A stretch of DNA of 64,000 nt from a candidate division FCPU426 bacterium (GCA_963840035.1 CAWIXE010000002.1:992099-1056098); one strand, 5' to 3'. Positions 4,727 to 60,362 are shown, numbered from the stretch's first letter. A program made the numbers and translations. The notes: generated by a model from the sequence alone, not told the origin.

Positions 4727-4782
4727 ATAAACACCTCTCCCTTTTTTTATATATTAACATGAAAAACGGGGGGTGTAAAGAC

Positions 4783-4856
4783 CATTGACAATTGTTGATT
4801 GACGATTGACAATTAATTACTACAACAATCAAAAAAGCAATTGTCAATTGTCAATT
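4783..4856. promoter_or_regulatory. cluster of ATTGACAATT direct and inverted repeats (candidate operator/hairpin) between PilZ gene stop and TPR-protein gene start
   Basis: 'cattgacaattg', 'gattgacgattgacaatt' and inverted 'caattgtcaattgtcaatt' within 75 bp. Confidence 0.35.
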
Positions 4857-5271: not shown

Positions 5272-7197
5272 CTATTTTAGGATTACCATCTTTTTTGTTA
5301 TCGTTTTACCCTGCGCCGATACCTTTATCAGGTACACGCCGCTTGCGGCTTTCATTCCGCGCTCATTGTCAAGGTTCCATACAACTTCGTTAATCCCCGG
5401 CCGGGTGGCCGCGGCTGTAAGGGTTTTAGCCCAGACCGGCTTATTATTGATATCGGTAATCAACATACCCGCCTCACAGCTTTCCTTTAGGGGGAACCTT
5501 ATCGTTGTAAAATCCCGGCACGGGTTTGGATAGTTATAAGTCTCTGCCGGGTCAAGGGTCTCATAACGAGATTCAACAACTATTGGCGCCGGATTTTTAT
5601 CCGCAAGGACAAAAACCCTAGCGCATTTCTTGCGGGTGTCAATGGCATACTCAACGCCGCATTTCCCGCAGTAAATAATGACACCTTCCGGGAAACCCCT
5701 GGTTAAGAACAACCTGAATAAATTGTCGGCAATTACGCCAAAGTTGGACTTATTGCATCCTTTTTCAGCCATATTGAATTCGCATGATTTTATGGCATGG
5801 CCCTTTGACGGCAGTTCTATATAAATCTTTTCAAGCTTTGTAAAATGGTCATGGGACATCCTGAACCTGAAAACATGCATGCATTTAACTGCTGTCGTTG
5901 CCGGAGTTATTTCGGTTGTGGGCACTTGTGTAGGCATCACGGTTGCCGTCTCTTTAATTATTACAACCACTGTCGCTGTTTCAGTTGGTGTTTGTGTAAA
6001 TGTTTCTGTATCAACAGGCGTTTCAGTAAACGTTTCAGTATTGGTTGGCGTTTCAGTAAACGTTTCAGTATTGGTTGGCGTTTCAGTAAACGTTTCAGTA
6101 TTGGTTGGCGTTTCAGTGAAGATTTCAGTATTGGTTTGTGTTTCAGTGAAAGTCTCAGTATCAGCAGGAGTCTCCGTGAACGTCTCCGTGGCTGTAAATG
6201 TTTCCACAGGCAGCTGCGTCGGTTCTTCAATACGCAGTTCAAAAACAGCTACGCCTTCAGGATAGTTAAACTGCCCCGGCAACGGGCCCTTTACAGCCCC
6301 GAAACTCTTTTCAAACAGTCCATCGGAATTAAATTTCTGTACCCTGTTATTGCCGGCGTCAGCCACATATACATAACCCTCTGAATCCACTGATATGCCG
6401 TATATGTCGCCAAACTGCCCCGCAGCCGCGCCTTTGCTTCCCCATTTTAATTCAAACGCGCCCTCGCGCGAGAACCTCTGCACCCTGTAATTATTCGCGT
6501 CAGCCACATATACCCTGCCGCTGCTGTCGATTGCGGCGGCGCGCGGGTAATTGAACTTGCCTTCCGCCGACCCTATTCCGCCGATTATCTGAAGCGCGTT
6601 GCCGAACGCGTCAAGTTTTTTAACCCTGTTATTTAAAGTATCACATACATATATCAGTCCTGTAACGGTGTCAACTGCCACACCCTGGGGGTTATTGTAG
6701 TCCATGATACCGCTGCCGGCCTTTGTTGAGCCAAAAGTCATAGCCCATGTACCGTCAGCGTTTAAGACCTGTATTCTGTTGTTTCCGGTGTCAGCCACTA
6801 CCACGCGTTCAAGCCCGTCAGTGACTATAACTGCAATGCTGTTCGGGCTGGAAAAACCGCCATTAAGCTTGCTGCTTGCCGGCCCGCCCCAGGTCCCGCG
6901 CCAGTTTCCTGAAGTGTCAAATACCTGCAGCCTGTTATTACCCGTATCAGCTACATATATAAGGCCGCTTGCCATTCCTGCCGCAATGGAACCCGGATAA
7001 CTAAACTGGCTTACCCCGCTGCCTTTTGAGCCCCATGACATAATAACATTGCCGTCAAAATCCATTGATTGGATCCTGTAATTTGAGGTATCAGAGATGA
7101 ATATCGAGCGGATTGTCTGGGCTTGTGTATTATTTGCCAGGAGTAAAAGTACTGTAAGGCTGGTCAGCGTTTGTAGGAGTGATTTTTCTGTTTTCAT
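5272..7197 (-). CDS. secreted NHL-repeat protein with Thr-rich tandem-repeat linker and T9SS-type (Por/FlgD-Ig-like) C-terminal domain
   Basis: Start set at MKTEKS (RBS AAGGAGGTG upstream); repeated 'YVADTGNNRLQVF'-type NHL blades; 'TNTETFTETP' repeats; C-terminus 'NYPNPCRDFTTIRF...GVYLIKV...KKMVILK'. Confidence 0.7.
   Translation of the reverse strand: MKTEKSLLQTLTSLTVLLLLANNTQAQTIRSIFISDTSNYRIQSMDFDGNVIMSWGSKGSGVSQFSYPGSIAAGMASGLIYVADTGNNRLQVFDTSGNWRGTWGGPASSKLNGGFSSPNSIAVIVTDGLERVVVADTGNNRIQVLNADGTWAMTFGSTKAGSGIMDYNNPQGVAVDTVTGLIYVCDTLNNRVKKLDAFGNALQIIGGIGSAEGKFNYPRAAAIDSSGRVYVADANNYRVQRFSREGAFELKWGSKGAAAGQFGDIYGISVDSEGYVYVADAGNNRVQKFNSDGLFEKSFGAVKGPLPGQFNYPEGVAVFELRIEEPTQLPVETFTATETFTETPADTETFTETQTNTEIFTETPTNTETFTETPTNTETFTETPTNTETFTETPVDTETFTQTPTETATVVVIIKETATVMPTQVPTTEITPATTAVKCMHVFRFRMSHDHFTKLEKIYIELPSKGHAIKSCEFNMAEKGCNKSNFGVIADNLFRLFLTRGFPEGVIIYCGKCGVEYAIDTRKKCARVFVLADKNPAPIVVESRYETLDPAETYNYPNPCRDFTTIRFPLKESCEAGMLITDINNKPVWAKTLTAAATRPGINEVVWNLDNERGMKAASGVYLIKVSAQGKTITKKMVILK
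6021..6140. repeat. 30-bp in-frame tandem repeat, 3 perfect + 1 degenerate copies, inside NHL-protein gene
   Basis: Unit 'tttcagtaaacgtttcagtattggttggcg' at 6021, 6051, 6081; degenerate copies flank. Confidence 0.85.
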
Positions 7198-7373
7198 GTC
7201 GCTCACCTCCTTCGCAGTTCCCCTCTCATTTGTAATATAGCTCACAAATGATTTTTTGTCAAGTATTATGTTAAGTATATTGTTAGTATTTAACTAAAGT
7301 GCACGAAAACGCCACTAAAATATGGTGAATTTTTGAAATATCGAATATTGTGTTTTTTGATTTTTTGCGTTTT

Positions 7374-9512
7374 TTAAAAATTATAGGTTAATGATATTCC
7401 CACATTTTCCATATCCAGCATGGGCGCAAACCCTATCTTATTTTCCTTTGCTATTCTTTCGCTTCTGTTGGTATAAACCGCGTTGTAAACCGCGGTATAG
7501 CCGGGCGCGGAAGCCACATCAGCAAGATATGAAATTCCAAATAAAGCAATACCCGCATAGCGCATAAAATCCTGCGTCGTATTCCCTGTTTTTGTCCCCG
7601 GGTTGGCGAGGTATAACACCGCGCCAAGCGCTTCAACGCCTGCCAGAGTAAACGCCGTTGAATAATTTTCCGCGTAAAAATTACCCGCGCCATGCGCGAG
7701 CAGTCCGGGGCCGGCCGCTATTAAAAACGCGATGCCCGGTTCCTTTTCATCTTTCTTTTCCGTTACCTTATACGGGCTGTTCGGGCAAAGAAGCTGTTTG
7801 TAATATTCCGAATTGACATTATCGGTATGCAGCAGCGAGCCATAAAGGTCTATGCACCTCATGACGGTGTAAACGCCGATTGCGGAATACATAAAACCCT
7901 GCGCGATCTTTTTATTATCATCGCCGGCTTTTCCGTTATAAATCATTCCCACCCCGTATGTAATGCCCGTTAAAATCGGCGTGGCAATAAGCAGCTTAAG
8001 CGCTGTCTCGTTATCGCCCGCCCACCAGTGCCCTGCTCCGGGAATAATTCCGGCGGTAAGCGAGAATACGGAAGTAAGGGCCGGGTCTTTGTATTCCACC
8101 CTTTCCTTTTCAACTTTAAGCTCCATCGTTTTTATCTTATTAAGGTACAGCTCCGCGTTCTCGGTTGCCACAAAAGGAGCCGTGACATAATCAGTCAAAA
8201 GCCCCGCCGCCATCATGCCGGCTCCTGCTGACATAAGCGCGTAATCGGATTTTTCCGTATTTTCAAATTTACCGTTGATTATGGCGCCGGCCGTGATAAG
8301 CATGCCGCCCACTATGGTAAGCGACGAAGACGCGGGCGTCCATGTCTGCAGCCTGCTCCGCGAATAGAAATTACCGAACCCGGCGTAAAGCAGGTTTATG
8401 GGAAAAAGGTCTATGTACGAAAACATATGGGCCGAGAAAGGCGATTTAAACTCCTCATCAACATTCCTCCCCGCGTAAATCTTGTCCATACCCGCCGCGT
8501 GCGACGCCTCAAGTTTTGTGAGGTATGACGCGGTGGAAACATCGCCCGGATTATAAGACAGGTATTTTTTATAGAAAACTATTGCCTGCTCTTTATTGCC
8601 GAAAGAAACATAACAGTTGCCGAGGCGCTGATACGCCTGGTATATGCCCGCGTTGAGTTTTACAACCTCGGAATAGGCGTAGAATGCCTGCTTGTAGTTG
8701 CGCTGAGATTCCAGGGCCAGCCCTTTTTTATAATACTCCTGCGCCTTTGCCTTATTATCGTCAACCGGCGCTATTTTACCCGCTTCTTCAGCCAGTTTTT
8801 TATTTTGTTCTTCAAGTTTTTTCGCGTTTTCCTGCTGTTTTTTCTCGCTCTCGCGCTGCTGCTCTTCAAGCTGTTTCTGAGCGTCCTTCTGCTGCTGTTC
8901 ATACTGGCGCTGCTGTTCCTCGGTGCGTTTCTTCGCGTCCTGCTGCTGTTGTTCATACTGACGCTTCTGTTCCTCAGTACGGTTTTTGGCGTCCTGTTGC
9001 TGCTGTTCGTACTGGCGTTTCTGTTCTTCAGTACGGTTCTTCGCGTCTTTCTGCTGCTGTTCATACTGCCGTTGCTGCTCTTCAGTTCGTTTTTTTGCGT
9101 CCTGTACCTGCTGTTCATTCTTTCGTTTCTGTTCTTCAGCCTGTTTCTTAGCTTCATTTAAGCGCTCTTCATAGCGTTTCTGGCTGTCATCAGCCGCCAT
9201 TTTTGAGTCTTTATTCTTCTGTTCGACAGCCTTTAACTGTTCTTCCTTTTTTGCCTTCAGCGCTTCCTGATTCTTTTTATAGGCTTCCTGCCTTGCTTTA
9301 TAATCAGCAAGCTTCTTATTATAAGCCTGCTGTGTAGCCTGCGCCACTGCCGCCTTTATCTTAGAAACTACAGGCTTTACAGTTTTGACTGGAACCGCTT
9401 TAACCGCAGGTTTAACCGTAGGTATTGCCGTAGGCTTAACCGTAGAAGCAGCCGCTCCAAAGAGCATATTTGCCGAAGCCAAAAGCACAATTAGCAGTAT
9501 ATATTTTCTCAT
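7374..9512 (-). CDS. secreted coiled-coil repeat / TPR protein with C-terminal putative beta-barrel-like domain
   Basis: Signal peptide; 18-aa Q/E/K-rich repeats (DAKNRTEEQKRQYEQQQQ); TPR-like segment; C-terminus ends '...ISLTYNF'. Confidence 0.5.
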   Translation of the reverse strand: MRKYILLIVLLASANMLFGAAASTVKPTAIPTVKPAVKAVPVKTVKPVVSKIKAAVAQATQQAYNKKLADYKARQEAYKKNQEALKAKKEEQLKAVEQKNKDSKMAADDSQKRYEERLNEAKKQAEEQKRKNEQQVQDAKKRTEEQQRQYEQQQKDAKNRTEEQKRQYEQQQQDAKNRTEEQKRQYEQQQQDAKKRTEEQQRQYEQQQKDAQKQLEEQQRESEKKQQENAKKLEEQNKKLAEEAGKIAPVDDNKAKAQEYYKKGLALESQRNYKQAFYAYSEVVKLNAGIYQAYQRLGNCYVSFGNKEQAIVFYKKYLSYNPGDVSTASYLTKLEASHAAGMDKIYAGRNVDEEFKSPFSAHMFSYIDLFPINLLYAGFGNFYSRSRLQTWTPASSSLTIVGGMLITAGAIINGKFENTEKSDYALMSAGAGMMAAGLLTDYVTAPFVATENAELYLNKIKTMELKVEKERVEYKDPALTSVFSLTAGIIPGAGHWWAGDNETALKLLIATPILTGITYGVGMIYNGKAGDDNKKIAQGFMYSAIGVYTVMRCIDLYGSLLHTDNVNSEYYKQLLCPNSPYKVTEKKDEKEPGIAFLIAAGPGLLAHGAGNFYAENYSTAFTLAGVEALGAVLYLANPGTKTGNTTQDFMRYAGIALFGISYLADVASAPGYTAVYNAVYTNRSERIAKENKIGFAPMLDMENVGISLTYNF
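8881..9100. repeat. 54-bp in-frame tandem repeats (about 4 copies) encoding 18-aa coiled-coil units
   Basis: Units beginning 'gcgtcct(t/g)ctgctg...ttcatactg...' recur every 54 bp. Confidence 0.75.
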
Positions 9513-10331: not shown

Positions 10332-10395
10332 GTAGAGACACAGCTTGCTGTGTCTCGCCTTTCAACGTCTGAGACGCAGCAAGCTGCGTCTCTAC
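10332..10395. repeat. 64-bp GTAGAGA...TCTCTAC double-hairpin repeat, copy A
   Basis: 'gtagagacacagcttgctgtgtctcgcctttcaacgtctgagacgcagcaagctgcgtctctac'; two adjacent perfect hairpins; ~97% identical to copy B. Confidence 0.8.
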
Positions 10396-10450
10396 AAAAA
10401 TCCGACTCATCAAGTAGTTCTTAGAATTGCCGTATTACATTTAAAAGCAA

Positions 10451-11147: not shown

Positions 11148-11211
11148 GTAGAGACACAGCTTGCTGTGTCTCGCCCTTCAACGTCTGAGACGCAGCAAGC
11201 CGCGTCTCTAC
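11148..11211. repeat. 64-bp GTAGAGA...TCTCTAC double-hairpin repeat, copy B
   Basis: Same sequence as 10332..10395 with 2 substitutions; lies between uvrA stop and RDD gene start. Confidence 0.8.
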
Positions 11212-11226
11212 AAAAAACAGAACAGG

Positions 11227-16285: not shown

Positions 16286-16301
16286 AATACCTCCATGAAT
16301 C

Positions 16302-16392
16302 AGCTTAAAACTGAAAGCTTAAAACTGAAAATTGAGTCAAAACCGGACTTGAAATATTATTTCATTTTCAGTTTTCAGCTTTAAACTTTAAA
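16302..16392. repeat. simple-sequence imperfect inverted repeat at operon junction
   Basis: 'agcttaaaactgaaagcttaaaactgaaaattga' vs downstream 'ttcattttcagttttcagctttaaactttaaa'. Confidence 0.6.
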
Positions 16393-16398
16393 TTTGTC

Positions 16399-17580: not shown

Positions 17581-17629
17581 AAGGGCGAATTTTCAATTTT
17601 AAATTTTATATTTTCAATTAACACCGGAA

Positions 17630-18518: not shown

Positions 18519-18668
18519 GTCATTGCGATGAGGCGCCTATTACTTCGCCGACAAAGTCCTTCGACTTCGCTCAGGGCCATGAGCCTGTCGAATGGCAATC
18601 TGGCTGTTTTAGAACTTAAACCAGATTGCTTCGTCGCCATAAATCAAATACGGCTCCTCGCAATGACA
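18519..18668. repeat. ~150-bp palindromic MITE/REP-like intergenic element, copy 2
   Basis: TIRs 'gtcattgcgatgagg' / 'cctcgcaatgac'; shares identical 48-nt core with 2623..2780; sits between panC and panB. Confidence 0.75.
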
Positions 18669-22630: not shown

Positions 22631-22647
22631 GAAGACTCCTCAATGAT

Positions 22648-22764
22648 CGGGAATGGGGAATTGGGAATGGGGAATGGCAGACATAACATCCAGCCACAAA
22701 CCCAAAAACCAAATCCTTACGCCCTTTATTATTGCCATTCCCTATTGCCCATTCCCTATTCCCC
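22648..22764. repeat. simple-sequence imperfect inverted repeat filling the FAH-dapB intergenic region
   Basis: 'cgggaatggggaattgggaatggggaatggcag' vs 'ttgccattccctattgcccattccctattcccc'. Confidence 0.65.
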
Positions 22765-22766
22765 AC

Positions 22767-23546
22767 TTACAGCCCCAACACATCCGCCATCGTATACATG
22801 CCCGGCTGTTTGCCGGCTACAAACTTCGCCGCCTTTAAAGCGCCCATTGCCAGTGTTTCCCTGGAAAAAGCCGTATGTGATATTTCAAGCTTATCGCCCA
22901 TGGAACCGAATATGACTGTGTGCTCGCCGACTATGCCTCCGGCGCGTACCGCGAAGACTCCGATTTGATCCCTGTTTCTTTCATTATTCCTGCCGTCCCT
23001 GCCAAAGACCATGTTGGCTTTCGGGTCAAGCCCTTTTTCCCTGAGGATTACTTCCGCCGTTGTTAAAGCCGTGCCTGACGGCGCGTCTTTTTTCATCCTG
23101 TGATGGGATTCCACTATGTCAATATCATAATCTTCTTTTAATGCCTTTGTAGCCTCTTTGAGCAGCTTCCACATGACATTAATGCCGACGGAATAGTTTG
23201 AGGACAGGACTATGGGTATTTTCTTGGACGCGGTCTCAATCTCAAATAATTCATTCGCGTCAAATCCCGTAGTGCCGATCACCATGGGTTTCTTCGCCTC
23301 TACAAGCGCTTTTATGTGGTTAAGCGTGGCAACAGGCGTGGTAAAGTCTATAAAAACATCCGTGCCCGCTACGCCGGACTTCAGGTCATCGCTGATGGTA
23401 AACCCGTTTATGTTTCCGCCGACAGCTTTGTTTCCTTTCGCCTCAAGCAGCATGGAAATACGGAAATCATCCGGCTGCTGCGCGGCTGAAGATATAAGAG
23501 CCTGCCCCATACGGCCGGCCGCCCCGGAAATGCCTACTTTTAACAT
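22767..23546 (-). CDS. dapB: 4-hydroxy-tetrahydrodipicolinate reductase
   Basis: 'MLKVGISGAAGRMGQ' NAD(P) motif and 'ESHHRMKKDAPSGTA' catalytic motif. Confidence 0.9.
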   Translation of the reverse strand: MLKVGISGAAGRMGQALISSAAQQPDDFRISMLLEAKGNKAVGGNINGFTISDDLKSGVAGTDVFIDFTTPVATLNHIKALVEAKKPMVIGTTGFDANELFEIETASKKIPIVLSSNYSVGINVMWKLLKEATKALKEDYDIDIVESHHRMKKDAPSGTALTTAEVILREKGLDPKANMVFGRDGRNNERNRDQIGVFAVRAGGIVGEHTVIFGSMGDKLEISHTAFSRETLAMGALKAAKFVAGKQPGMYTMADVLGL

Positions 23547-24513: not shown

Positions 24514-24557
24514 GATAGACCTCCAGAAATTTTCAATTTTATATTTTCAATTTTCTA

Positions 24558-25370
24558 TTACCATTTTAATGCTTCAGGACCCGCCATGCCTTCGGCTACA
24601 ACCCTTGCGTTACCTTCAAGAAAAACATCATTAATTATGCCGCCGTTATCCTTGAAATATATCGTCAGTTTTCCGCCTTTGGCAAAGAGCGTTACCGGCG
24701 ATTTTGCCACGCCGTTTAAATACAGCGCGATGCCCGCGGCTGTCGCGCCTGTGCCGCACGCGTAAGTTTCAGCTTCCACTCCGCGCTCATACGTCCTTAT
24801 GGCGAATGAATTCTTGCCTGTTTTCTGGACAAAATTTACGTTTGTGCCCTTAGGGCCGAACACCCTGTGAAACCTGAGCATCCTTCCCGTCTTTGCCACA
24901 TCAACTTTTTTTATATCCTTAACCGGCACCACAAAATGCGGCACTCCGGTATTCATGAAAGCGCCTTCCACTCCGCCCGCTGTAACCGCTTTTTTTATGT
25001 CAAAAGGGTCTGTCATGCCAAGTTTCACTTCTCCGTTGGGCTTTACCTGGGCCGTATGCGGCCCGTCATTGGCCATGAACTTAACCGTCGTTCCGGAGTA
25101 TCCCTTCAGGTAAGAGAACCTGGAAATGCACCTCGCGCCGTTTCCGCACATGTCAGCTTCTTTGCCGTTGTTGTTATAAAACTTCATGGTAAAATCAAAT
25201 CCCTTTGAAGGCTTATTCAAAAGTATAAGCCCGTCAGCGCCTATGGAAAACCTGTTAGCGCAGAGCGCGGCTATTTCCTTAGCGGAAAGTTTTATCTTCC
25301 CCTTGTAATTGTCTATCACTATAAAATCATTCCCGTTGCCGGACATCTTGGTGAAGCGCAGTTCTTTCAT
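24558..25370 (-). CDS. dapF: diaminopimelate epimerase
   Basis: 'FTKMSGNGNDFIVIDN' and second-half Cys motif 'YERGVEAETYACGTGATAAG'. Confidence 0.9.
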   Translation of the reverse strand: MKELRFTKMSGNGNDFIVIDNYKGKIKLSAKEIAALCANRFSIGADGLILLNKPSKGFDFTMKFYNNNGKEADMCGNGARCISRFSYLKGYSGTTVKFMANDGPHTAQVKPNGEVKLGMTDPFDIKKAVTAGGVEGAFMNTGVPHFVVPVKDIKKVDVAKTGRMLRFHRVFGPKGTNVNFVQKTGKNSFAIRTYERGVEAETYACGTGATAAGIALYLNGVAKSPVTLFAKGGKLTIYFKDNGGIINDVFLEGNARVVAEGMAGPEALKW

Positions 25371-25382
25371 GAATTACTCCTT

Positions 25383-25466
25383 TGATATTTGATATGCGAT
25401 ATCGGATATTAGATATATATCCTTCTGCCTTCAACGTTTATATCTAATATCAAATATCCAATATCA
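25383..25466. repeat. simple-sequence imperfect inverted repeat between lysA and dapF
   Basis: 'gatatttgatatgcgatatcggatattagatata' vs 'tatatctaatatcaaatatccaatatc'. Confidence 0.65.
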
Positions 25467-25475
25467 CACATGCCC

Positions 25476-26717: not shown

Positions 26718-27097
26718 TTTAAGCCTCCGTAAATGCGTAAGTGTATAGTTTAAGAAATATAACATAATTGCGTTTTTTAGTCAATTTATAGATATAATGG
26801 CTGATTCGGGATTCTGGATTCTAAATTCTGGATTAAAACATCCCAAAACAATTTTACGCTTTATTTTAAAGCAATTTCCGGAAAACGGCAGACGGGAAGC
26901 TGATTTTTGAATAAGCTAAACGGGCACATAGTCATGCTTCACCTCCTGGTATATCCCAATCAAGCCGGCCCGCCAGACCAAAAACCAACCGTCAATTATA
27001 TCGCCTCAGCATCTCACATTATCACTGCAGCCTCCAGCACACCCCGTCAGCTAATTCAAAAATCAGCTTCCCGCCTGCCGCTTCTACGTGGTCTGTC

Positions 27098-31860: not shown

Positions 31861-31972
31861 ATATTTCCTCCTTTTTCCGGGCGTTCGCCCTGTGTTTTGT
31901 GCCTTCACTGAGGAAGACACCAACCCGGGAAAAAGGTTCCATAATAAAACGCATTATTTATAAGGCCATTTG

Positions 31973-31997
31973 TAGGGACAGCGCTCCCGCGCTGTCC
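31973..31997. repeat. GC-rich hairpin, inverted duplicate of hairpin at 32062..32083
   Basis: 'tagggacagcgctcccgcgctgtcc', palindromic stem 'ggacagcgc'/'gcgctgtcc'. Confidence 0.7.
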
Positions 31998-32045
31998 GCG
32001 CGGGGATTATGTTATGATTTTTAAACGTGGCTATAAATTCAGGTG

Positions 32046-32083
32046 AAAAAAAAACGCCGGCGGACAGCGCGGGAGCGCTGTCC
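32046..32083 (-). terminator. Rho-independent terminator immediately after 32084..32602 gene
   Basis: Minus strand reads 'ggacagcgctcccgcgctgtcc' followed by 'gccggcg' and U9. Confidence 0.65.
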
Positions 32084-32602
32084 CTACTCTGCGTACACCC
32101 ATTCAAAATCTCTTATTTTACTATTCCAATAAGCAATCGCGCTGTCAGCGTGAAACCGTTTAAACATGATTACCGGCGTTTTAAAAGTCCGGCCCTGCCA
32201 TGTCCCGGTGAAACTTTCCAGGCTGAGGTTATCCGGTAAGGATTTATACTTTCCCAGGAAATATTTCCTGTAATTGGAGCCTTCGCTGATCAAAGCGATA
32301 GCCTGAGCGGAAAAATTCACAACAACCCCGTTTTCCACCACATCCGACCTGACAATAAAGGCATAATCCTTTATGCCGTCAGAGTTAAAATCCGTGTTTA
32401 CATATCCCGGGCTTTTTAGTGTTATCTTGTGTTTCTTTAAAAAGGTTAAAAAATCATCGCTTAAATCCTTTACAGTCATTGTCCTTGCGTCAGGGCCGAA
32501 TGACATGAGCACGCTTTCAAAATTAAGGCCTTCAATTGGCCAGATCTGTGAAAAACAGAAAACAGGAAGTAATATTAAAACAAGTACAAAGATTTTTTTC
32601 AT
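32084..32602 (-). CDS. secreted hypothetical protein
   Basis: 172 aa, signal peptide MKKIFVLVLILLPVFCFSQ; no recognised motif. Confidence 0.5.
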   Translation of the reverse strand: MKKIFVLVLILLPVFCFSQIWPIEGLNFESVLMSFGPDARTMTVKDLSDDFLTFLKKHKITLKSPGYVNTDFNSDGIKDYAFIVRSDVVENGVVVNFSAQAIALISEGSNYRKYFLGKYKSLPDNLSLESFTGTWQGRTFKTPVIMFKRFHADSAIAYWNSKIRDFEWVYAE

Positions 32603-34291: not shown

Positions 34292-34363
34292 TTAAACAGA
34301 CACCATTCCTTTATTTTTGTTCCAGGTGTTTAAAAACGCCAATCGACAATAGTCAATCATCAA

Positions 34364-35269
34364 TTATTTGACAACATCGGTCTTACCTATGAGCATATTA
34401 CCCAGAATCCTCAGATAGTCTTTTATCGTTATATAAACCGCGTTATCAGGCATAGGAACCTTGTGCGGAAACGGCCTTGAATATACGTTAACCAGCGTAT
34501 GGTGAAGCACGTGTTCCCTTGTGTCACCATGGGTAAAGAACAGGAATATTTTTTCCATAAACCCCTTGTCGCTTAAATTCCTGGTTTTAATGTTCCTGTT
34601 GTTATAATCCCCCTCAACTATCAGGTTGCCGTGCTCTATCATCTGCGAATGGTGCAGGAAGAAAGAATTGATCCAGATGGAAACCAGGTATGAAACAGCC
34701 ACAGCCCCGGCGCTGACGCCGAATACGAAATGCGCGGCTGTGCCAAGCCCTCCCAAAAACAGGGCTATCATCAGCAGTGTCAGCAGCGATGATGATCTCC
34801 TGTATTTAGCTTTATACTTAGGATGAGCGGGCAGAACAGCCGTTCCCATAAGCGAAATAAACGCTATGCCCAGGAAAATTTCGGCAATGTTATAAATGAT
34901 CTTAACTGCCCTGCTCTTTATCTCGCCGAGCGGGTGGAACTCAGTGTCATCCCATGTATTTACTTGGGAGTGATGAAATCCGTGAAGGATCTTATATATC
35001 TGGGGGTCTGTCAGAAGCATCCAGGAAAGGACATAATACAATTTTTCATTGTCAATATTTGTCACATATTTATGCCAGGTCTCATGCATAAGGTATCCAA
35101 GCCAGGTAAAAAGATATAGCCCGGGGAATATCATATAAGCAACAGACCACCATCCCGCTGCGGCAAAAACATAAGGAAGCGTAAAAAGATAAGCCGGCCA
35201 CGCAAACATGATGAAATAGAACTTCCAGGCCTGAGATTTAATTTCCTGTTCAGATATGTATTCAGCCAT
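34364..35269 (-). CDS. membrane fatty-acid desaturase family protein
   Basis: Histidine boxes 'HETWH', 'HGFHH', 'HHSQMIEH', 'HVLHH'. Confidence 0.75.
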   Translation of the reverse strand: MAEYISEQEIKSQAWKFYFIMFAWPAYLFTLPYVFAAAGWWSVAYMIFPGLYLFTWLGYLMHETWHKYVTNIDNEKLYYVLSWMLLTDPQIYKILHGFHHSQVNTWDDTEFHPLGEIKSRAVKIIYNIAEIFLGIAFISLMGTAVLPAHPKYKAKYRRSSSLLTLLMIALFLGGLGTAAHFVFGVSAGAVAVSYLVSIWINSFFLHHSQMIEHGNLIVEGDYNNRNIKTRNLSDKGFMEKIFLFFTHGDTREHVLHHTLVNVYSRPFPHKVPMPDNAVYITIKDYLRILGNMLIGKTDVVK

Positions 35270-35395
35270 ATAACCCTCCTATATGAGTAGATAACGACAT
35301 AATTATATATAGTAAAAGGTTTTTTTGCAATGTTTTTGAAGCAGGTTATTGACATCAGGACATGGCTTGCCACCCACTACTCACCACCCACTACC

Positions 35396-37470
35396 CTACC
35401 TCACACACACCAGCTTCTCAAACCCCTGCGCCTTTTCCCCTGTCTCTATCTGCGCTGTGACCGAGTATATAAAAGTCCCTGAAGCTATGTGTCTTTTTGC
35501 CCTGTTTTTTCCGTCCCAGTGGAAGTTATTATGGCCGGCTTTCGCGTTTATGCCGCATTCTTCTATGACTATCTCGCCTGATACGGTAAACACCCTCACG
35601 CACACCTCAGCGTCCCTTGAAAGCCAGTAAACTATGTTTGTGTCCTCGGCAAAAGGGTCGTTATAATTGCCTTTTAGTATAAGCTGTAACCGCGGAGTTA
35701 CCGGGGTAACAGTTGCAGACGCCTGCGGTGTCGAAGTTACTGTGCGGGTCGGTGTTGCAGTAATTGTCTTTGTAAATGTCAATGTTGGTGTAATTGTCCT
35801 TGTTATTGTTTTTGTCGGGGTAAATGTCATGGTCTGAGTTTTTGTAATCGTATCTGAAACAGTCATTGTCGGCGTTATGCTGAAAGTTGTTGTCATGGTC
35901 TGCGACGGTGTCAGTGTTTGCGTGACAGAATTAGTCAGGGTGACTGTCCGGGTCGGCAGAAGCGTTTCTGTGTGTGTTACGGTATAACTCGGGGTCTCAG
36001 TCAAGGTATCCCCGGGCGTCTGCGTCTGTGTATAAGTCGGGGTCCTGGTAAAAGTCGGCGAATTCGGACTTGTTGCGGTCCTTGTCGCTGTTCTTGTTCC
36101 GGTCGGAGTGCGCGTTGGCGTTACTGTAGCGGTAGAAGTGGATACGAAATCCGTCATCCCTGACCCGCCCGGATAGCCATATCCATCCTGGTCGTCAAAA
36201 CCGTACACGTTGACGCCTATTGGAAGCGGTGAAATAATGTTGTGGCTCCCGACCCCGACGCTTACGCGCGTGGCCGAAAAACCGCTGGATGCAATAGAAA
36301 TAAAACTACCCGCAGGTATAACCGAACCGTCAACTGATAATAGCCCGGCTGCGGCGTCAGGGGCAGTGATATTTAAATAATTCGCAGAGAAACCGGATTG
36401 TGGCGTCCCAACAGTGTAATTATCCAGATACTGCTCGACAGGTTCTATAATCATCATGAACGGGTCGCCGGTTGTGGAATCAAACATGGTGCTGTTTGAA
36501 TACTGCATAACAAGCACCCGGTTGTTCGAAGTTATCATTCCCGCCCCGCTGATTAACGCCTCAAAAAACGCGCCTTTGACCATAGGCGACGGGTTTAAAA
36601 GAGCCCCGTCAAGGTACAGGTATGTGCCGTTTTGTGACGCCATAATTCTGTAGGTATCGGTCCCTGACCTTCCCGCAAGCGGAACGATAATAAATTGTTT
36701 CCCCCAGCTCGATGTCGGGGCAGCTGTTCCACAAGGTAATTGCAGTAGTTGGATGACACCGGGATATCCGCGCAGATATGGCCCCCGAAAACAGCAATAC
36801 GCCTGTCAGAATCCACGGTTGTTCCGGTTAAATCCTCACTGCCGGGATTGTCATCTCGCAGTAAATAGACCTGCCCTTTATTCAGAATTACGTCATACGG
36901 GACATTCTGGATCCTGCCGCCTATCGTGCAGTTAAGCCTGATTGTCACCGTGGTGTTATCTTCGACAGCCACTACGGCAAATTCACTTCCTACCGGGTTA
37001 TTTACGCCGCCGTTATTGAATGAAAGAATTATATGGTTGGTGCCAAGCGCTTCCACAGGAAGGCCCAAAAACGCGTCTGTAATGACAGGGCTGTGCGAAT
37101 AACCGTATACGGTTACCGGATCAGCCGAGGTTACATGTATACCCCTCACCGAAACAACGTCGCTGTCAAAAACGTCGCTGTTCCATGGCAGGTCCACATA
37201 GGTTATAGCGCCGGCAGTCACATTTACATTTTTGTTAAACGTCAGGACCGGCGATAAGGATATGGTCATGTTCACGGTTGCTGTCGTATTGGTCTGTGAA
37301 GTGATGAGTATTTGCTTTGCAGGCGATATTCCCGAACTGTAAGGCGAATAATATGACCCCGGGATGCAAATCCAGAAATCAGTCCCTTCGCTGGTGGGTG
37401 AAGAAAATGCATAAAACGGCATTATGAAAAGATATGCCATTACTGTCAAAACCTTAATTTTTAATTTCAT
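35396..37470 (-). pseudogene. frameshifted gene for secreted IgGFc-binding-like domain protein with Thr-rich linker and T9SS-type C-terminal domain
   Basis: ORFs 36595..37470 and 35396..36643 are one gene: the '...NYCNYLVEQLP' frame continues as 'PTSSWGKQFIIVPLAGRSGTDTYRIMASQNG...' in the next frame; shift at G4 run 36717..36720. Confidence 0.6.
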
Positions 37471-37729: not shown

Positions 37730-38800
37730 CTATAAAATACCTTTCTTTAATTCTTCCATATAAACTTTCTTAGCCGTTTTTCCCGACTTATATATGGCCT
37801 CGACCATCCACTGCGTCTCAAGCCCGGCATCCTCGTCAACGTCCACAGGCGTGTTATTTATAATCGCTTCGTAAAAACGCCTTATCTCCACCGAATGGCA
37901 ATAGCCCCAGTATTCTTTCCATCCGCTTCCATAATCAATGAACTCGCTCTTTTTAGGTTTGGCTGAAAGATGGCTTCCAAAAAGTTTCTTCTCATTAAAA
38001 TAAACGTCTGCCTGGTCCTTCACTATTTTTACTTTGCCTTTTTCGCAGTGTATTTCCATGACCACGTCATCGTCGTATGAATAATGGCATATGGTATAGA
38101 AGTTGATGTACGAACCGTTCTTAAACATCACAACGCCGGCCGCGTCGTCTTCTACCTGTACTTTTACATGCATCCTGTTGGCGATGGACGCGTCTACCCA
38201 GTCTATTTCAGAGTTAAATACGTAACGTAGAATGTCCAATGAATGGATTGCCTGATCTATAATAACCCCGCCGCCCTCTTTATCCCATGTCCCCTTCCAG
38301 TCGCTTTTAAGATAATACTCGTCAGGCTTGCACCATGAAAGTATCAGCTTTGCCGAGAGTATCTTTCCCAGTTTTCCTGACTCAATTGTCTTTTTAGCCA
38401 GCTGCGTGGAGGGGTTATACCTGTTCTGGAACGAAATGGCAAACTTTACCTTCTTTTCTTTTATCTTTTTATAAAGCGCCACAGCGTCAGCTGCGCTTGT
38501 GGTCATGGGTTTTTCCTGGTAAATGTGGACGCCGCGTTCAGCGGCGTATTCAGTCATTTCTTTGTGCAGGTAGTGCGGGGTACACACATGTACCACGTCT
38601 GGTTTTACCTGGTCAATCATGCTTTTATAATTGGCGAATGTTTCACAGCCGTATTTATTCCCCGCGGCCAGAAGCCTGTCCTGTTTTATGTCACAAACAG
38701 CCTTTAATTCGGCAATATCCTTACATGCCTGACGCACAGATTCCGCGTGCATCGGAAAAATAGTTCCGCATCCTATGATCGCAACCTTTAACTTAGCCAT
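37730..38800 (-). CDS. Gfo/Idh/MocA family oxidoreductase
   Basis: Start set at MAKLKVAIIGCG (RBS GGAGGG); Rossmann motif and Gfo/Idh/MocA C-terminal domain. Confidence 0.8.
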   Translation of the reverse strand: MAKLKVAIIGCGTIFPMHAESVRQACKDIAELKAVCDIKQDRLLAAGNKYGCETFANYKSMIDQVKPDVVHVCTPHYLHKEMTEYAAERGVHIYQEKPMTTSAADAVALYKKIKEKKVKFAISFQNRYNPSTQLAKKTIESGKLGKILSAKLILSWCKPDEYYLKSDWKGTWDKEGGGVIIDQAIHSLDILRYVFNSEIDWVDASIANRMHVKVQVEDDAAGVVMFKNGSYINFYTICHYSYDDDVVMEIHCEKGKVKIVKDQADVYFNEKKLFGSHLSAKPKKSEFIDYGSGWKEYWGYCHSVEIRRFYEAIINNTPVDVDEDAGLETQWMVEAIYKSGKTAKKVYMEELKKGIL

Positions 38801-38812
38801 ACCTAACCCTCC

Positions 38813-38857
38813 ATTTGTCTTATTTGTCTTATTTGTCTTATTTGTCCTATTTGTCCT
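38813..38857. repeat. 9-bp tandem repeat x5 immediately upstream of oxidoreductase RBS
   Basis: 'atttgtctt' x3 then 'atttgtcct' x2. Confidence 0.85.
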
Positions 38858-38865
38858 ATTAGCCA

Positions 38866-39432
38866 TTACTCAAAAACGTGCGTCAGCTGCACTCCGGCAA
38901 AAATACCGCTCAAATCAATATACCCCGGATCAAAAGGCGCGTAGTTAAAGCCGGCTTTGTAATACCTGTATCCGACTTCCAACCCGGCATAAAACTGCCC
39001 CTTTACCTGATAAAGAAACGCTTCTTTAACCGCAAATTCAAAACCTCCGCCTTTTTCATCATTTACATCTATTCTATACCTTGCAATTCCATATCCGGCC
39101 GACACTGTTGACCAGAGCATATATTTTTTTTCATCAAATAACACCATATAGCCAAGGTCCACCGAAGGTATCGGCGAGATGATTCTCATGTTATGGCCTG
39201 ACAAATCCAAATCCTCAATGCCCAAATGATTATAAGCAAACCCCGCGCTGAAACCATTTTCCCAAACCCAGCCCAACCCTCCGTTTGGCACGGCAACCCT
39301 TCCGGATTTTATCCCGAAATCTTTATTTTCCCCGTACATCTCCTGATCATATCCGAGAGTAAGGTATAATCCGGCATTTATAATCGCCGACATAGCAGCA
39401 ACAAAAAAAAGTATCAGCACTGTTCTTTTCAT
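38866..39432 (-). CDS. small outer-membrane beta-barrel-type protein
   Basis: Signal peptide MKRTVLILFFVAAMSAIINA; Gly/Tyr-rich alternating strands; C-terminal 'LTHVFE'. Confidence 0.5.
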   Translation of the reverse strand: MKRTVLILFFVAAMSAIINAGLYLTLGYDQEMYGENKDFGIKSGRVAVPNGGLGWVWENGFSAGFAYNHLGIEDLDLSGHNMRIISPIPSVDLGYMVLFDEKKYMLWSTVSAGYGIARYRIDVNDEKGGGFEFAVKEAFLYQVKGQFYAGLEVGYRYYKAGFNYAPFDPGYIDLSGIFAGVQLTHVFE

Positions 39433-39440
39433 GTTCCCTC

Positions 39441-40196
39441 CTAAATTTGTATGCTTAAATATTCATTCCCGCCTTTTACAAACTCAAAATCAACCCTCTT
39501 TATCTCAAACTTTACCTTTGTAAATTTCATATCATTCATTATCCTGTCCACAAATTCGCACCTTTTCCACCTTAAGTTCACTATCGGGAATATCCTTATT
39601 TCCTCCCTCGTGACCCTGATGAGTTCCGATATGGCGTCGCAGTGGAAGTTATAGTCCAGGTGCTCATCATACAGGAAGAGAAAATGCGAAACAAGCGTCA
39701 GGTCAAACTCCTTATCAGTCAGAACCGTGTCAGGCAAAGACGTGTTTATGTACCTGTAATTGCCCTTTGCCTTATAATCAACAATGAACCTTTTATAAGC
39801 CTCTTCGCGGTATTTTTTAAGGGTTTCAATATCCTTATAAAAGCCCCAGTTATAGTTATCCTTTACAGCCGGCAGTTTCGATATCATCTCAGCCAGGTCT
39901 TGCCTGCATTTTGGCTCAAGTTCTTCAGGCGAATACTTATAGAGCCTGTCCGCTGATTTTGCGTCAAACCCCAGCTCATTTGCCTCCGCGGTAAAAGAAG
40001 AAACCCCTCCGCCCGCATCCAGTATCTGGGTATTCTTAAGCTCAGTAAACCGCAGGTCAAACATCCGGGAATACTCATCAAGCGTCCTGCCGATTGCGAT
40101 AATATCATTCAGTTCAAACTTTTCGATACTCAATTTGATACACCCCGTAAGTGTTTGCGGGTAGAGGGTTGAGTCCGAAGTAACTCCGAACCCCAC
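39441..40196 (-). CDS. SAM-dependent methyltransferase-like protein
   Basis: 'ILDAGGGVSSF' motif-I-like; true start may be internal because the annotated 5' end overlaps an intergenic hairpin. Confidence 0.45.
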   Translation of the reverse strand: MGFGVTSDSTLYPQTLTGCIKLSIEKFELNDIIAIGRTLDEYSRMFDLRFTELKNTQILDAGGGVSSFTAEANELGFDAKSADRLYKYSPEELEPKCRQDLAEMISKLPAVKDNYNWGFYKDIETLKKYREEAYKRFIVDYKAKGNYRYINTSLPDTVLTDKEFDLTLVSHFLFLYDEHLDYNFHCDAISELIRVTREEIRIFPIVNLRWKRCEFVDRIMNDMKFTKVKFEIKRVDFEFVKGGNEYLSIQI

Positions 40197-40212
40197 CCTC
40201 CACCCTCAAAAC

Positions 40213-40896
40213 CTAATTCAATCCTTCTTTATACCTGTCCTCAACTTTAACATTCATTATATCCGTGACTTTTGTCAATACCGCGTCAAATTCCGCCTCT
40301 TTTCCCTCTTCGCAGATAAGGTAAGCCCTGAGCGCCACAGAATCGCTTACCATGGCGTTTTTTACAGGCAGGTAATAGCCCGCCTCTACAGGCCCGGGAT
40401 TATAACCGGTGGTAAAAAACTCCACTACCAGGTTTGTTTCAAGTCCGCCTTCGAGCCTTAACCCAACTGTAAGGGCCAGGTTCATGGTTGTATAGTCCAT
40501 GTAATACTTATACACTTTATCTATGTTATAAACAATTTTTTCAAAGATATACTTGATCTCAGCCGGGGTATATTTGTGGAAAAACTCGTCATCTACCTCG
40601 ATAATCTCCTCATCAACTTCATCCATGGCCTGCGATACCGGGTCCGCAGGCGCGTGTTCGTGCTCAGGACCGTGCTCATGGCCGCATTCCTCGCATTCAT
40701 GAGTATCATTTTCCATGGATAAAAACTTCTTGATATCTGCCATCTCCGGGTCATTTACAGATTTTAAAGCGTCCCTTAAGTCCTCAAGCTCCAGGCATGT
40801 TATGCTGCCCTGCTCCACATGGCCGTTTAAGGTAAACTGATACAGAAAATCAGGTATCATTGAGGCAAGATCCAGGTTAAAATTAATTTTTTGCAT
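40213..40896 (-). CDS. hypothetical acidic protein with His/Cys/Glu-rich motif
   Basis: Start set at MQKINFNLD; 'HECEECGHEHGPEHEHAP' metal-binding-like stretch. Confidence 0.5.
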   Translation of the reverse strand: MQKINFNLDLASMIPDFLYQFTLNGHVEQGSITCLELEDLRDALKSVNDPEMADIKKFLSMENDTHECEECGHEHGPEHEHAPADPVSQAMDEVDEEIIEVDDEFFHKYTPAEIKYIFEKIVYNIDKVYKYYMDYTTMNLALTVGLRLEGGLETNLVVEFFTTGYNPGPVEAGYYLPVKNAMVSDSVALRAYLICEEGKEAEFDAVLTKVTDIMNVKVEDRYKEGLN

Positions 40897-42011
40897 TATG
40901 CTTATTCTCCGCTTCCATTTTGAGGTAGGCCTCGACATATACATCCAGGTCGCCGTCTAAAACTTTATCCACATCGCTGCGCTCCAAGTCGGTGCGCAGG
41001 TCTTTTATCATTTTATAAGGGTGCAAAACATAAGAGCGTATCTGGCTGCCCCACGCAATCTCGCGCTTATCACCGGCTATCGACGCAATGTTCTCCTTAT
41101 GCTGTTCTTCTTTTATGGCTACCAGTTTGGATTTTAGGACTTTCATGGCTATTGCCCTGTTTTTCATCTGGGAACGGTCTACCTGACAGGCTACAATCAC
41201 TCCGGTGGGTATATGGGTTATCCTGATGGCTGATTCGGTCTTGTTCACGTGCTGTCCGCCTGCGCCTGATGACCTGTATGTATCGACTTTCAGGTCTTCC
41301 GGCCTGATATCCACTTCCACGTCTTCTTCTATCTCGGGAATGACCTCCAGCGAGGCAAATGAGGTATGCCTGCGCTTGTTGGAATCAAATGGCGATATCC
41401 TGACAAGCCTGTGAACGCCCTTTTCCGGCCGGAAACAACCATAGGCGTAGTCGCCTATGACTTCAAAGGTCACATTTTTAATGCCAGCCTCGTCGCCGGG
41501 CATGGAATCAGTGACATTTACCTCAAAACCTTTCTTTTCACACCACATTACATACATCCGCAGCAGCATCTGCGCCCAGTCACAGGACTCTGTCCCGCCC
41601 GCGCCGGCATGCAGGGTTACTATGGCGTTGCTTCTGTCATATTTTCCGGAAAACATCTGGTTGAATTCTTCGTTATCCACAGCCTTCTTTAATTCCGCAA
41701 ATTTCTTCTGAAGTTCAGCCTCAAGCGACGCGTCTTTCTCGCTTTCAAGGAGTTCAAGCGTCACTTCAACCTCTTCAATTAAAGTGTTTATTTTATTTGT
41801 TTTTGTTATATCGTTATTGATGGCTTTTAACTTTAACTGTACTTCAGCCGCAGCCTTATTGTTGCTCCAGAAATCAGGCTCGGCAGTCATTGTCTCCAGC
41901 TTTATTTTTTCAACTTTCTTGTCTTTAACGTCAAAGATACACCTCTATCTTCGATGCTCTCTGCTTAATATCAGACAATGCTGACCTTATTTCCTTTATT
42001 TCCAGCGCCAT
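40883..42011 (-). CDS. prfB: peptide chain release factor 2, with programmed +1 ribosomal frameshift
   Basis: Frame 0 'MALEIKEIRSALSDIKQRASKIEVYL' ends at CTT TGA C (41936..41930) preceded by SD-like GAGGTG; +1 frame continues DVKDKK...; 'SPF' and 'GGQ' motifs present. Confidence 0.9.
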
Positions 42012-60291: not shown

Positions 60292-60362
60292 TCTGCACCT
60301 TTTGTTTCTATGATTTATGACACAATTTGTAATTTGTCATTGGTAATTAGTAATTAAGCCCT

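Follow-up and report, generated by a model that had tools for sequence, protein, structure and literature searches.

A block of near-identical 9-nt units separates two co-directional genes in an FCPU426-like uncultured bacterium, and it abuts the ribosome-binding site (RBS) of the second gene. The question raised by this locus is whether the array is part of the protein that follows, whether it sets the expression of that protein through unit number or by binding a regulator, or whether it is a product of replication slippage with little consequence of its own. The array was analysed within the 64 kb of DNA surrounding it, here called the window, and in relation to other loci. The likelier reading in our judgement is a lineage-specific, non-coding repeat born by slippage, whose role ahead of the RBS would not go beyond that of a passive, unstructured spacer; among the known post-stop repeats it would be one of unusual period.

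Sequence and assembly of the array

On the given strand, ATTTGTCTT is found at 38813-38821, 38822-38830 and 38831-38839, and ATTTGTCCT at 38840-38848 and 38849-38857, followed by a partial ATT at 38858-38860. In the mRNA sense, which is that of the minus strand, the array is (AGGACAAAU)2(AAGACAAAU)3 and its surroundings read ...CAC GUU UUU GAG UAA UGGCUAAU (AGGACAAAU)2 (AAGACAAAU)3 GGAGGG UUAGGU AUG, with coding continuing as AUG GCU AAG UUA AAG GUU GCG AUC AUA GGA UGC GGA. Similarity to the unit begins, in register, at the TAA, and the first full unit starts 8 nt past this stop. The five units have an A content of about 62% and hold stop codons in one frame only. Tandem Repeats Finder reported 38813-38860 with period 9, 5.3 copies, 97% matches and a score of 82. 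Both this program and direct reading of the sequence confirmed the units and positions of the five 9-bp repeats described in the initial annotation, and the landmarks given there, an array between the stop of the upstream small ORF and the GGAGGG of a Gfo/Idh/MocA gene, are as stated. The coordinates are collected in Table 1.

Chance is a poor explanation of the array. ATTTGTCYT occurs seven times in the window against 1.8 expected, a number that was reached in none of 100 shuffles, and a lag-autocorrelation scan found one period-9 array in the window's intergenic DNA, that at 38813, where 0.00-0.01 were expected. The array is also the sole perfect threefold 9-mer of the window, and 847 kb of unrelated control loci contained no perfect threefold 9-mer.

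Tandem repeats can mis-assemble, and a collapsed or expanded repeat was therefore weighed as an explanation of the array. A second independent assembly, Logan contig L001 (run ERR11594406), carries an identical five-unit array and is 99.994% identical to the genome contig (>1 Mb) over 16.8 kb. A single-base difference in a C4/C5 run elsewhere means that one or both of the assemblies hold small errors; across the array, however, they agree base for base, which makes an artefact unlikely, and the longest run of identical units (27 of 45 nt) is short compared with the read length and with k = 31. An assembly artefact is, on these data, extremely improbable.

The two records that carry the organism, the source genome and one Logan contig, both have five copies; they were found through exact look-ups of the 378-aa, 356-aa, 188-aa, 251-aa and 301-aa products. 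The species-specific array junction had no match in a scan of JGI metagenomes, and a look-up of a gene at the window's edge, aimed at sequence farther out, gave no match either. That the short-read Logan contig runs unbroken through the array is weak evidence for one dominant allele. If copy number does vary, the 9-mer would be a convenient strain marker for the lineage.

Table 1. Coordinates of the array, its neighbouring genes and other repeats. Positions are those of the window; the last row lists contigs.
Feature	Position	Strand	Remarks
Five tandem 9-nt units	38813..38857	-	Non-coding, unstructured; read from sequence, Tandem Repeats Finder, folding
Spacer 5' end UGGCUAAU	38858..38865	-	Last three bases AAU are a partial sixth unit
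Shine-Dalgarno (SD) GGAGGG	38807..38812	-	6 nt before start codon; anti-SD duplex -9.8 kcal/mol
TAATG: TAA stop of 188-aa ORF (38868-38866) overlapping ATG (38866-38864)	38864..38868	-	
Gfo/Idh/MocA-family NAD(P)-dependent sugar oxidoreductase, 356 aa (MAKLKVAIIGCG...)	37730..38800	-	Pfam PF01408, PF22725, PF02894
Upstream cistron, 188 aa	38866..39432	-	Signal-peptide-like N-terminus, beta-rich sequence
Rest of gene string: prfB, 227/243-aa ORF, 251-aa ORF	39441..41936	-	Co-directional
Period-7 arrays	1486-1543, 2839-2866, 4780-4856, 7337-7365, 16302-16397		Degenerate, own unit at each
Period-7 arrays, continued	17581-17624, 22640-22768, 24526-24563, 25379-25474, 26795-26836		Degenerate
Period-7 arrays, continued	34334-34368, 35369-35397, 60321-60359		Degenerate
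Heptamer array, loop and inverted heptamer array	4727-4850, 16286-16398, 22631-22766, 25371-25475		Intercistronic spacers
Contigs with (AAGACAAAT)n	L140-L144, L148, L072, L128		

Start codon of the oxidoreductase gene and its operon

Gene callers report a 378-aa product beginning MANRTNRTNKTNKTNKTNGGLG, which starts at ATG 38866-38864 in frame with the oxidoreductase and would include the array in the coding sequence. Restart of translation at overlapping stop and start codons is common in bacteria, and a restart at the TAATG would yield a 378-aa isoform with (NRT)2(NKT)3, that is five successive N-x-T motifs, because the upstream ATG is in frame and the frame stays open across the array. The open frame carries no weight, since a 9-nt unit leaves two of three frames open by construction, and by chance it would be expected in about one case in four.

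Comparison with homologs disagrees with the longer product. None of the 120 homologs listed has an N-terminal extension; their lengths are 273-362 aa and they cover at most 94% of the 378-aa query. For the 15 homologs retrieved by sequence, the N-terminus reads MxKL[KR]V.IIGCG or nearly so and lines up with M23 of the 378-aa ORF or a position close to it. The SD duplex at ATG 38866 (-2.2 kcal/mol) is at the background level for random AUGs, whereas that at ATG 38800 (-9.8 kcal/mol) is stronger than those of 80% of the window's 61 genes, and seven related loci have GGAGG 5-7 nt before the start of the oxidoreductase gene. Homolog lengths and starts, SD energies and the upstream GGAGG of the seven relatives thus establish that the oxidoreductase initiates at ATG 38800 (38800-38798, minus strand) and that the 378-aa ORF is an annotation artefact. 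It follows that the array lies in a 65-nt spacer and is non-coding. The annotation is thereby corrected to an oxidoreductase of 356 aa instead of 378 aa, without the NRT/NKT 'repeat protein' N-terminus, which is spurious, in agreement with the earlier remark that the N-terminus 'MANRTNRTNKTNKTN' is just these repeats translated. Some long form may be made, nothing points to a function of it, and a translated extension as the role of the array is very unlikely.

The 8 bases ATGGCTAA occur twice on the minus strand, at 38859-38866 and 38793-38800, 66 nt apart. One copy includes the spurious upstream ATG and the other the true start codon, with the array and the RBS in between. This pairing could be due to chance, or it could be the trace of an insertion or duplication event.

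The oxidoreductase gene is the last cistron of a conserved prfB-led string, in which the gaps between cistrons are 8-16 nt or the genes overlap. With gaps this short the simplest view is that the array is an internal part of the operon mRNA, and it is probably transcribed within the prfB...oxidoreductase message. No NCBIfam equivalog reaches its cut-off for the oxidoreductase, and a specific enzyme name was dropped for that reason. The 188-aa ORF has no Pfam or NCBIfam match, Pfam being empty even at E <= 10; the only features noted in it are a signal-peptide-like N-terminus and a beta-rich pattern, and the outer-membrane-protein label of the initial annotation is plausible but putative. At the head of the string, prfB contains the classic programmed +1 frameshift site CUU UGA C at 41936-41930 (minus strand), preceded by the SD-like AGAGGUG; owing to the frameshift, the listed 335-aa ORF is without its first ~25 codons (MALEIKEIRSALSDIKQRASKIEVYL).

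Promoter, RNA folding and possible effects on translation

The initial annotation proposed that a change in copy number would alter the spacing between an upstream promoter and the RBS. A sigma-70-type scan, which may not fit the host phylum, found no sigma-70-like promoter in or beside the array on either strand, and no intrinsic-terminator-like site was found there on either strand. On the same strand, the closest promoter-like site ahead of the gene string precedes prfB, some 3 kb from the array. Since no promoter-like site flanks the array, the proposed effect on promoter-to-RBS spacing is unsupported, and a promoter spacing role was rejected with the reservation that the consensus employed may not be that of the phylum.

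An effect at the level of RNA structure is likewise not predicted. The 65-nt spacer has a minimum free energy (MFE) of -0.35 kcal/mol, and in a 131-nt context the array is entirely unpaired (z = +1.2). The region was rebuilt with 0-10 units and pairing probabilities were computed; the predicted probability of the SD being unpaired was 0.47 at every copy number from 3 to 10, which is not better than the 0.40 +/- 0.19 obtained with random 45-mers. A hidden hairpin or partner arm was considered and rejected, as the sole copy of the unit in reverse orientation is 3 kb off and the fold is so weak. Rfam at gathering thresholds gave no matches in the window. Unstructured RNA and an RBS accessibility that is flat at 3-10 copies together suggest a structurally inert array, in which gain or loss of units is predicted neither to open nor to close the RBS.

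These results bear on the possibility of a contingency locus, in which unit gain or loss would tune the sugar dehydrogenase, perhaps for cell-surface glycan synthesis, by changing the distance from the upstream stop codon or a promoter to the RBS. A run of five near-perfect units is prone to slippage. Contingency genes typically include those for surface glycans, and one source names some homologs UDP-N-acetyl-2-amino-2-deoxyglucuronate dehydrogenase, but our NCBIfam search gave no specific enzyme. Known repeat switches lie between -35 and -10 boxes, inside ORFs or in a structured 5' UTR. The array, in contrast, is outside the real ORF, is not placed between -35 and -10 boxes or accompanied by promoter hexamers, and has no structure; with a unit length that is a multiple of 3 and a position outside the ORF, no frame switch is possible.

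The best-documented case of a transcribed repeat upstream of an RBS that tunes expression is H. influenzae hmw1A, where the heptamer repeat (ATCTTTC)n in the 5' UTR has this effect (Rapun-Araiz et al. 2025, PMC12721329). There, at least 11 units are needed, and the repeat pairs with a G-rich arm to form a long hairpin that is cut by RNase III (PMC12721329). The array described here resembles it in being a repeat upstream of the RBS, but it consists of 5 units, lacks a partner arm and is predicted to be unstructured, and the accessibility of the RBS is predicted to be equal at 3-10 copies.

Variation in unit number is documented for the same unit at a locus elsewhere. Arrays of AAGACAAAT occupy one locus common to AT-rich contigs, some of them labelled giant-virus MAGs (Table 1), with 3, 4 or 8 copies, and these differences show that the AAGACAAAT unit is mutable. 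This variation of 3-8 copies at a shared locus speaks for a contingency role of the 9-mer. As related elements the viral-contig arrays were rejected, being ordinary A-rich microsatellites that are informative on number variation only. For the 9-mer itself, both assemblies have 5 copies and the Logan contig is unbroken through the array. A contingency locus is, taken together, quite unlikely.

Alternatively, the units could together bind the ribosome itself or a regulator that recognises single-stranded RNA, with CsrA, Hfq, S1 or a cold-shock-type protein as candidates. CsrA would bind via AGGA and the SD, and Hfq via A-R-N-like triplets, and translation of the last cistron would then be set independently. 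The array abuts the SD, the position at which post-transcriptional regulators bind, and is fully single-stranded in folding. Two AGGA motifs lie ~35-45 nt upstream of GGAGGG, a spacing of GGA motifs that suits bridging by a CsrA dimer, and in this respect the region resembles a CsrA leader by sequence only. CsrA sites normally show GGA in hairpin loops, whereas no hairpin presenting GGA motifs forms at the array in folding. Three of the five units hold AAGAC and not AGGAC, the oxidoreductase genes of the relatives do without such a site, and the units of the other arrays in the window are unrelated, so that no single sequence-specific binder fits all of them.

Proteins of the S1, Csp and Csr types have been proposed as binders of the TAACTGA repeats in Beggiatoaceae (PMC4679880), and related arrays in metagenomes have a conserved core (see below), both of which favour binding. 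Overall, we regard a binding array as unlikely.

A-rich unstructured translational enhancers and ribosome standby sites occur upstream of SD sequences. The array has a similar placement and composition, being a single-stranded tract of ~62% A next to the SD on its 5' side (MFE -0.35 kcal/mol). It differs in that relatives manage with a short unique spacer, and its accessibility of 0.47 compares with 0.40 +/- 0.19 for random sequence. The preferred reading of a passive spacer allows for such a platform: the array would form a 45-nt, A-rich and nearly structureless stretch of operon mRNA between the upstream stop and the SD, ribosomes would initiate at the SD-led ATG 38800, and the array would neither hide nor expose the RBS, acting as a passive spacer or ribosome landing platform at most. 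From the absence of signal in these analyses we infer that the array is near-neutral.

Origin of the array and comparison with other repeats

The nearest relatives in genome collections are labelled candidate division FCPU426 or 'uncultured Spirochaetia'. The closest, L002 (82% identity), has the same order prfB - 227 aa - 251 aa - 188 aa - oxidoreductase with similar ORF sizes, a 190-aa ORF taking the position of the 188-aa ORF, and its spacer between the small ORF and the oxidoreductase gene is 36 nt of unique sequence. In L008 (82% identity) the 3' end of the small ORF and the spacer are nearly identical; these two are the closest relatives, and both have the shared gene order with the small ORF upstream. 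No repeat was found upstream of the oxidoreductase in the seven related loci (66-82% protein identity, L002 and L008 included), which share a layout of unique spacer, GGAGG and start codon. The array is therefore a lineage-specific gain.

The units are ordered in blocks, AGG, AGG, AAG, AAG, AAG, and the variants differ by one G/A transition. This pattern fits stepwise duplication of neighbouring units by slippage, and replication slippage in the intercistronic spacer of one FCPU426-like lineage would account for the array. It is 97% uniform, against ~70-85% for the heptamer arrays of the window, which suggests that the 9-mer is younger or still turning over.

These heptamer arrays form a population of their own. 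The whole 64 kb was scanned by lag-autocorrelation for periods 4-15, with thresholds of >=80% and >=70% self-identity over four copies. At >=80% nine arrays were found, eight of period 7 and the ninth being the 9-mer, and all nine fall in the 7% of the window that is intergenic. At >=70% the 4.3 kb of intergenic DNA yielded 16 period-7 arrays, where 0.13 were expected and no more than 2 were seen in any of 200 shuffles, while the window had no intergenic arrays of period 6, 8 or 10-15 at this threshold and one each of periods 4 and 5, which is near the chance expectation. Per 100 kb the window holds 28 arrays; FCPU426-like relatives (99 kb scanned) have 1.0, and Clostridia loci (694 kb) have 3.0. 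The arrays occupy nearly half of the window's intergenic regions, and period-7 arrays are almost absent from coding DNA. The repeat unit differs from locus to locus.

Most period-7 arrays begin at the stop of the upstream minus-strand gene. The start lies -6 to +10 nt from an upstream stop codon in 13 of 18 arrays, where 5.7 were expected, and this preference hints at some selection or mechanism beyond simple slippage. Provision of backup stop codons was rejected as their purpose, since three-frame stops are present in 6 of the 18 against 3.8 expected, which is not significant. The four spacers in which a heptamer array is paired with an inverted one (Table 1) fold into long hairpins of -25 to -52 kcal/mol (z -2.7 to -4.6) that stop just short of the RBS of the next gene and have no U-tract; they look nearer to REP-type or RNase III-type elements than to terminators. 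Single arrays, the 9-mer included, are unstructured. The 9-mer shares the post-stop position of the heptamer arrays and not their period. It would be the youngest-looking member of a genome-wide population of short arrays just after stops that is otherwise of period 7; given its uniformity of 97% and its other period, it may have an origin or fate separate from theirs.

Heptamer arrays are also present in unrelated Clostridia MAG loci (L025 469-561, L048 12110-12148, L023 6433-6467 and L043 12294-12329), those of L025 being an inverted pair. One Clostridia MAG array (AATTGAAAATGTAAAATTTAAAA) is closely like the window array at 17588-17619.

Rehm et al. (2015, PMC4692102) described post-stop heptamer arrays of comparable anatomy, with the unit GGGAATC in Xanthomonas and GGGGA(T/C)T in Nostoc, and also cite the heptanucleotide 'STRR' repeats of Calothrix/Anabaena. 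The Xanthomonas and Nostoc repeats consist of near-perfect head-to-tail units of 5-11 nt and are almost always intergenic; relative to the coding strand of the 5' neighbour, most lie 0-50 bp past its stop. They occur alone or in inverted pairs, are far more abundant than expected in certain genomes and differ between close relatives (PMC4692102). Heptamers are the commonest long-unit prokaryotic repeats and have been attributed to polymerase slippage, their prevalence being tied to how long a stretch of DNA the polymerase holds (Mrazek 2007, as cited in PMC4679880).

This description fits the heptamer arrays of the window, among them the GGGAAT-type array at 22631-22766; the 9-mer agrees with it in position. 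Like the intergenic long-unit simple-sequence repeats (LSSR) of prokaryotes, the array has near-perfect units, a non-coding and post-stop location, and a class that is over-represented, here in the 64-kb window; with a unit of 9 nt it falls outside the heptanucleotide subtype (STRR / Xanthomonas / Nostoc). Its unit is A-rich and not G-rich and hence, unlike the Xanthomonas and Nostoc repeats, without G-quadruplex potential. Whereas those genomes are large and of high GC, the host here is an FCPU426-like uncultured bacterium with a genome of ~1.7 Mb, and its unit changes at nearly every locus of the window, no single heptamer being dominant.

In marine Beggiatoaceae, cyanobacteria and Bacteroidetes, direct repeats of the heptamer TAACTGA precede start codons and sometimes overlap the upstream stop codon (MacGregor 2015, PMC4679880). 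They too are short tandem arrays in intercistronic spacers a few nt before the start codon. They differ in using one fixed heptamer genome-wide, which usually replaces a recognisable SD and has stops in three frames, whereas the array here is followed by a strong SD and has a 9-nt unit with stops in one frame.

The density and diversity of post-stop arrays in a small genome are more notable than the 9-mer locus itself. Arrays so placed were known until now chiefly in Xanthomonas and heterocystous cyanobacteria; a small genome with its own unit at each locus could help in deciding whether they are of mutational origin (7-nt slippage) or have a function (as RNA elements). One may speculate that post-stop tandem arrays, comprising the period-7 arrays of the window, the 9-mer and the ATAGGACNN nonamers described below, are a functional class of intercistronic RNA and not slippage debris, a proposal that we consider doubtful. 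If it were true, single arrays would provide multivalent platforms on which the ribosome or an RNA-binding protein could land, and paired arrays would be register-shiftable hairpins, e.g. RNase III or stability elements. Through the arrays, the output of one cistron would be adjusted relative to that of its neighbour, and evolution could tune this balance by changing the unit number.

In JGI metagenomes, threefold ARGACAAAT was found at 73 loci, which fall into two kinds, AAGACAAAT arrays, among them those of the AT-rich contigs described above, and AGGACAAAT arrays. As proof of a dispersed functional family these loci were rejected, because the collection is so large that dozens are possibly expected for any 9-mer, and the absence of perfect arrays from the 847 kb of controls gives only an upper bound for the chance frequency. 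Arrays of AGGACAAAT are found on diverse contigs of 22-66% GC. In their flanking units ATAGGAC is kept at 75-95% per position and the next two positions at 39-54%, and a core conserved in this manner may indicate a sequence-specific element; three of the five units in the window are without the conserved G. At least two GTCCT motifs are present within 150 nt of 14 of 32 AGGACAAAT arrays, and these motifs mark an inverted (GTCCTATNN)n arm, with which the array would fold into a repeat-armed hairpin. Among AGGACAAAT arrays with a co-oriented upstream ORF, 8 of 13 start <=20 nt from the ORF end. Rfam had no matches in 15 metagenome loci with related arrays.

Nonamer arrays of ATAGGACNN were observed in L065-L137 (e.g. 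L066 685-790, L070 5525-5650, L113 1931-2050 and L105 1757-1900), on many metagenome contigs that are unrelated and range from 22 to 66% GC. Their ATAGGAC core is conserved and two positions vary, and Rfam has no family for them. They often begin right after a gene end and are followed by an inverted (NNGTCCTAT)n arm.

Other elements of the window were noted in passing. The IgGFc_binding-domain gene (35396-37470) is present as 291-aa and 415-aa ORFs in the window and as one 691-aa gene in L001; the split is at ~36716, where the window has a C4 run and L001 a C5 run. Either the genome assembly has a homopolymer error here, or this gene for a surface protein carries a genuine frameshift or a phase-variable tract. 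Three intergenic repeats dispersed over the window are similar to MITE or REP elements: a palindrome of ~124 nt (GTCATTGCGAGG...CGCAATGAC) with two copies at 2655-2778 and 18547-18668 (87% identity), a 69-nt palindromic element (GTAGAGACGC...GTCTCTAC) with two copies at 10332-10400 and 11148-11216 (97%), and a 28-nt perfect inverted repeat at 31972-31999 and 32060-32087, inside which the Logan contig ends. In-frame tandem repeats with periods of 30/60 and 54/108 nt are located at 6017-6180 and 8853-9173, inside the large minus-strand ORFs 5272-7245 and 7374-9512, which presumably encode repeat proteins.
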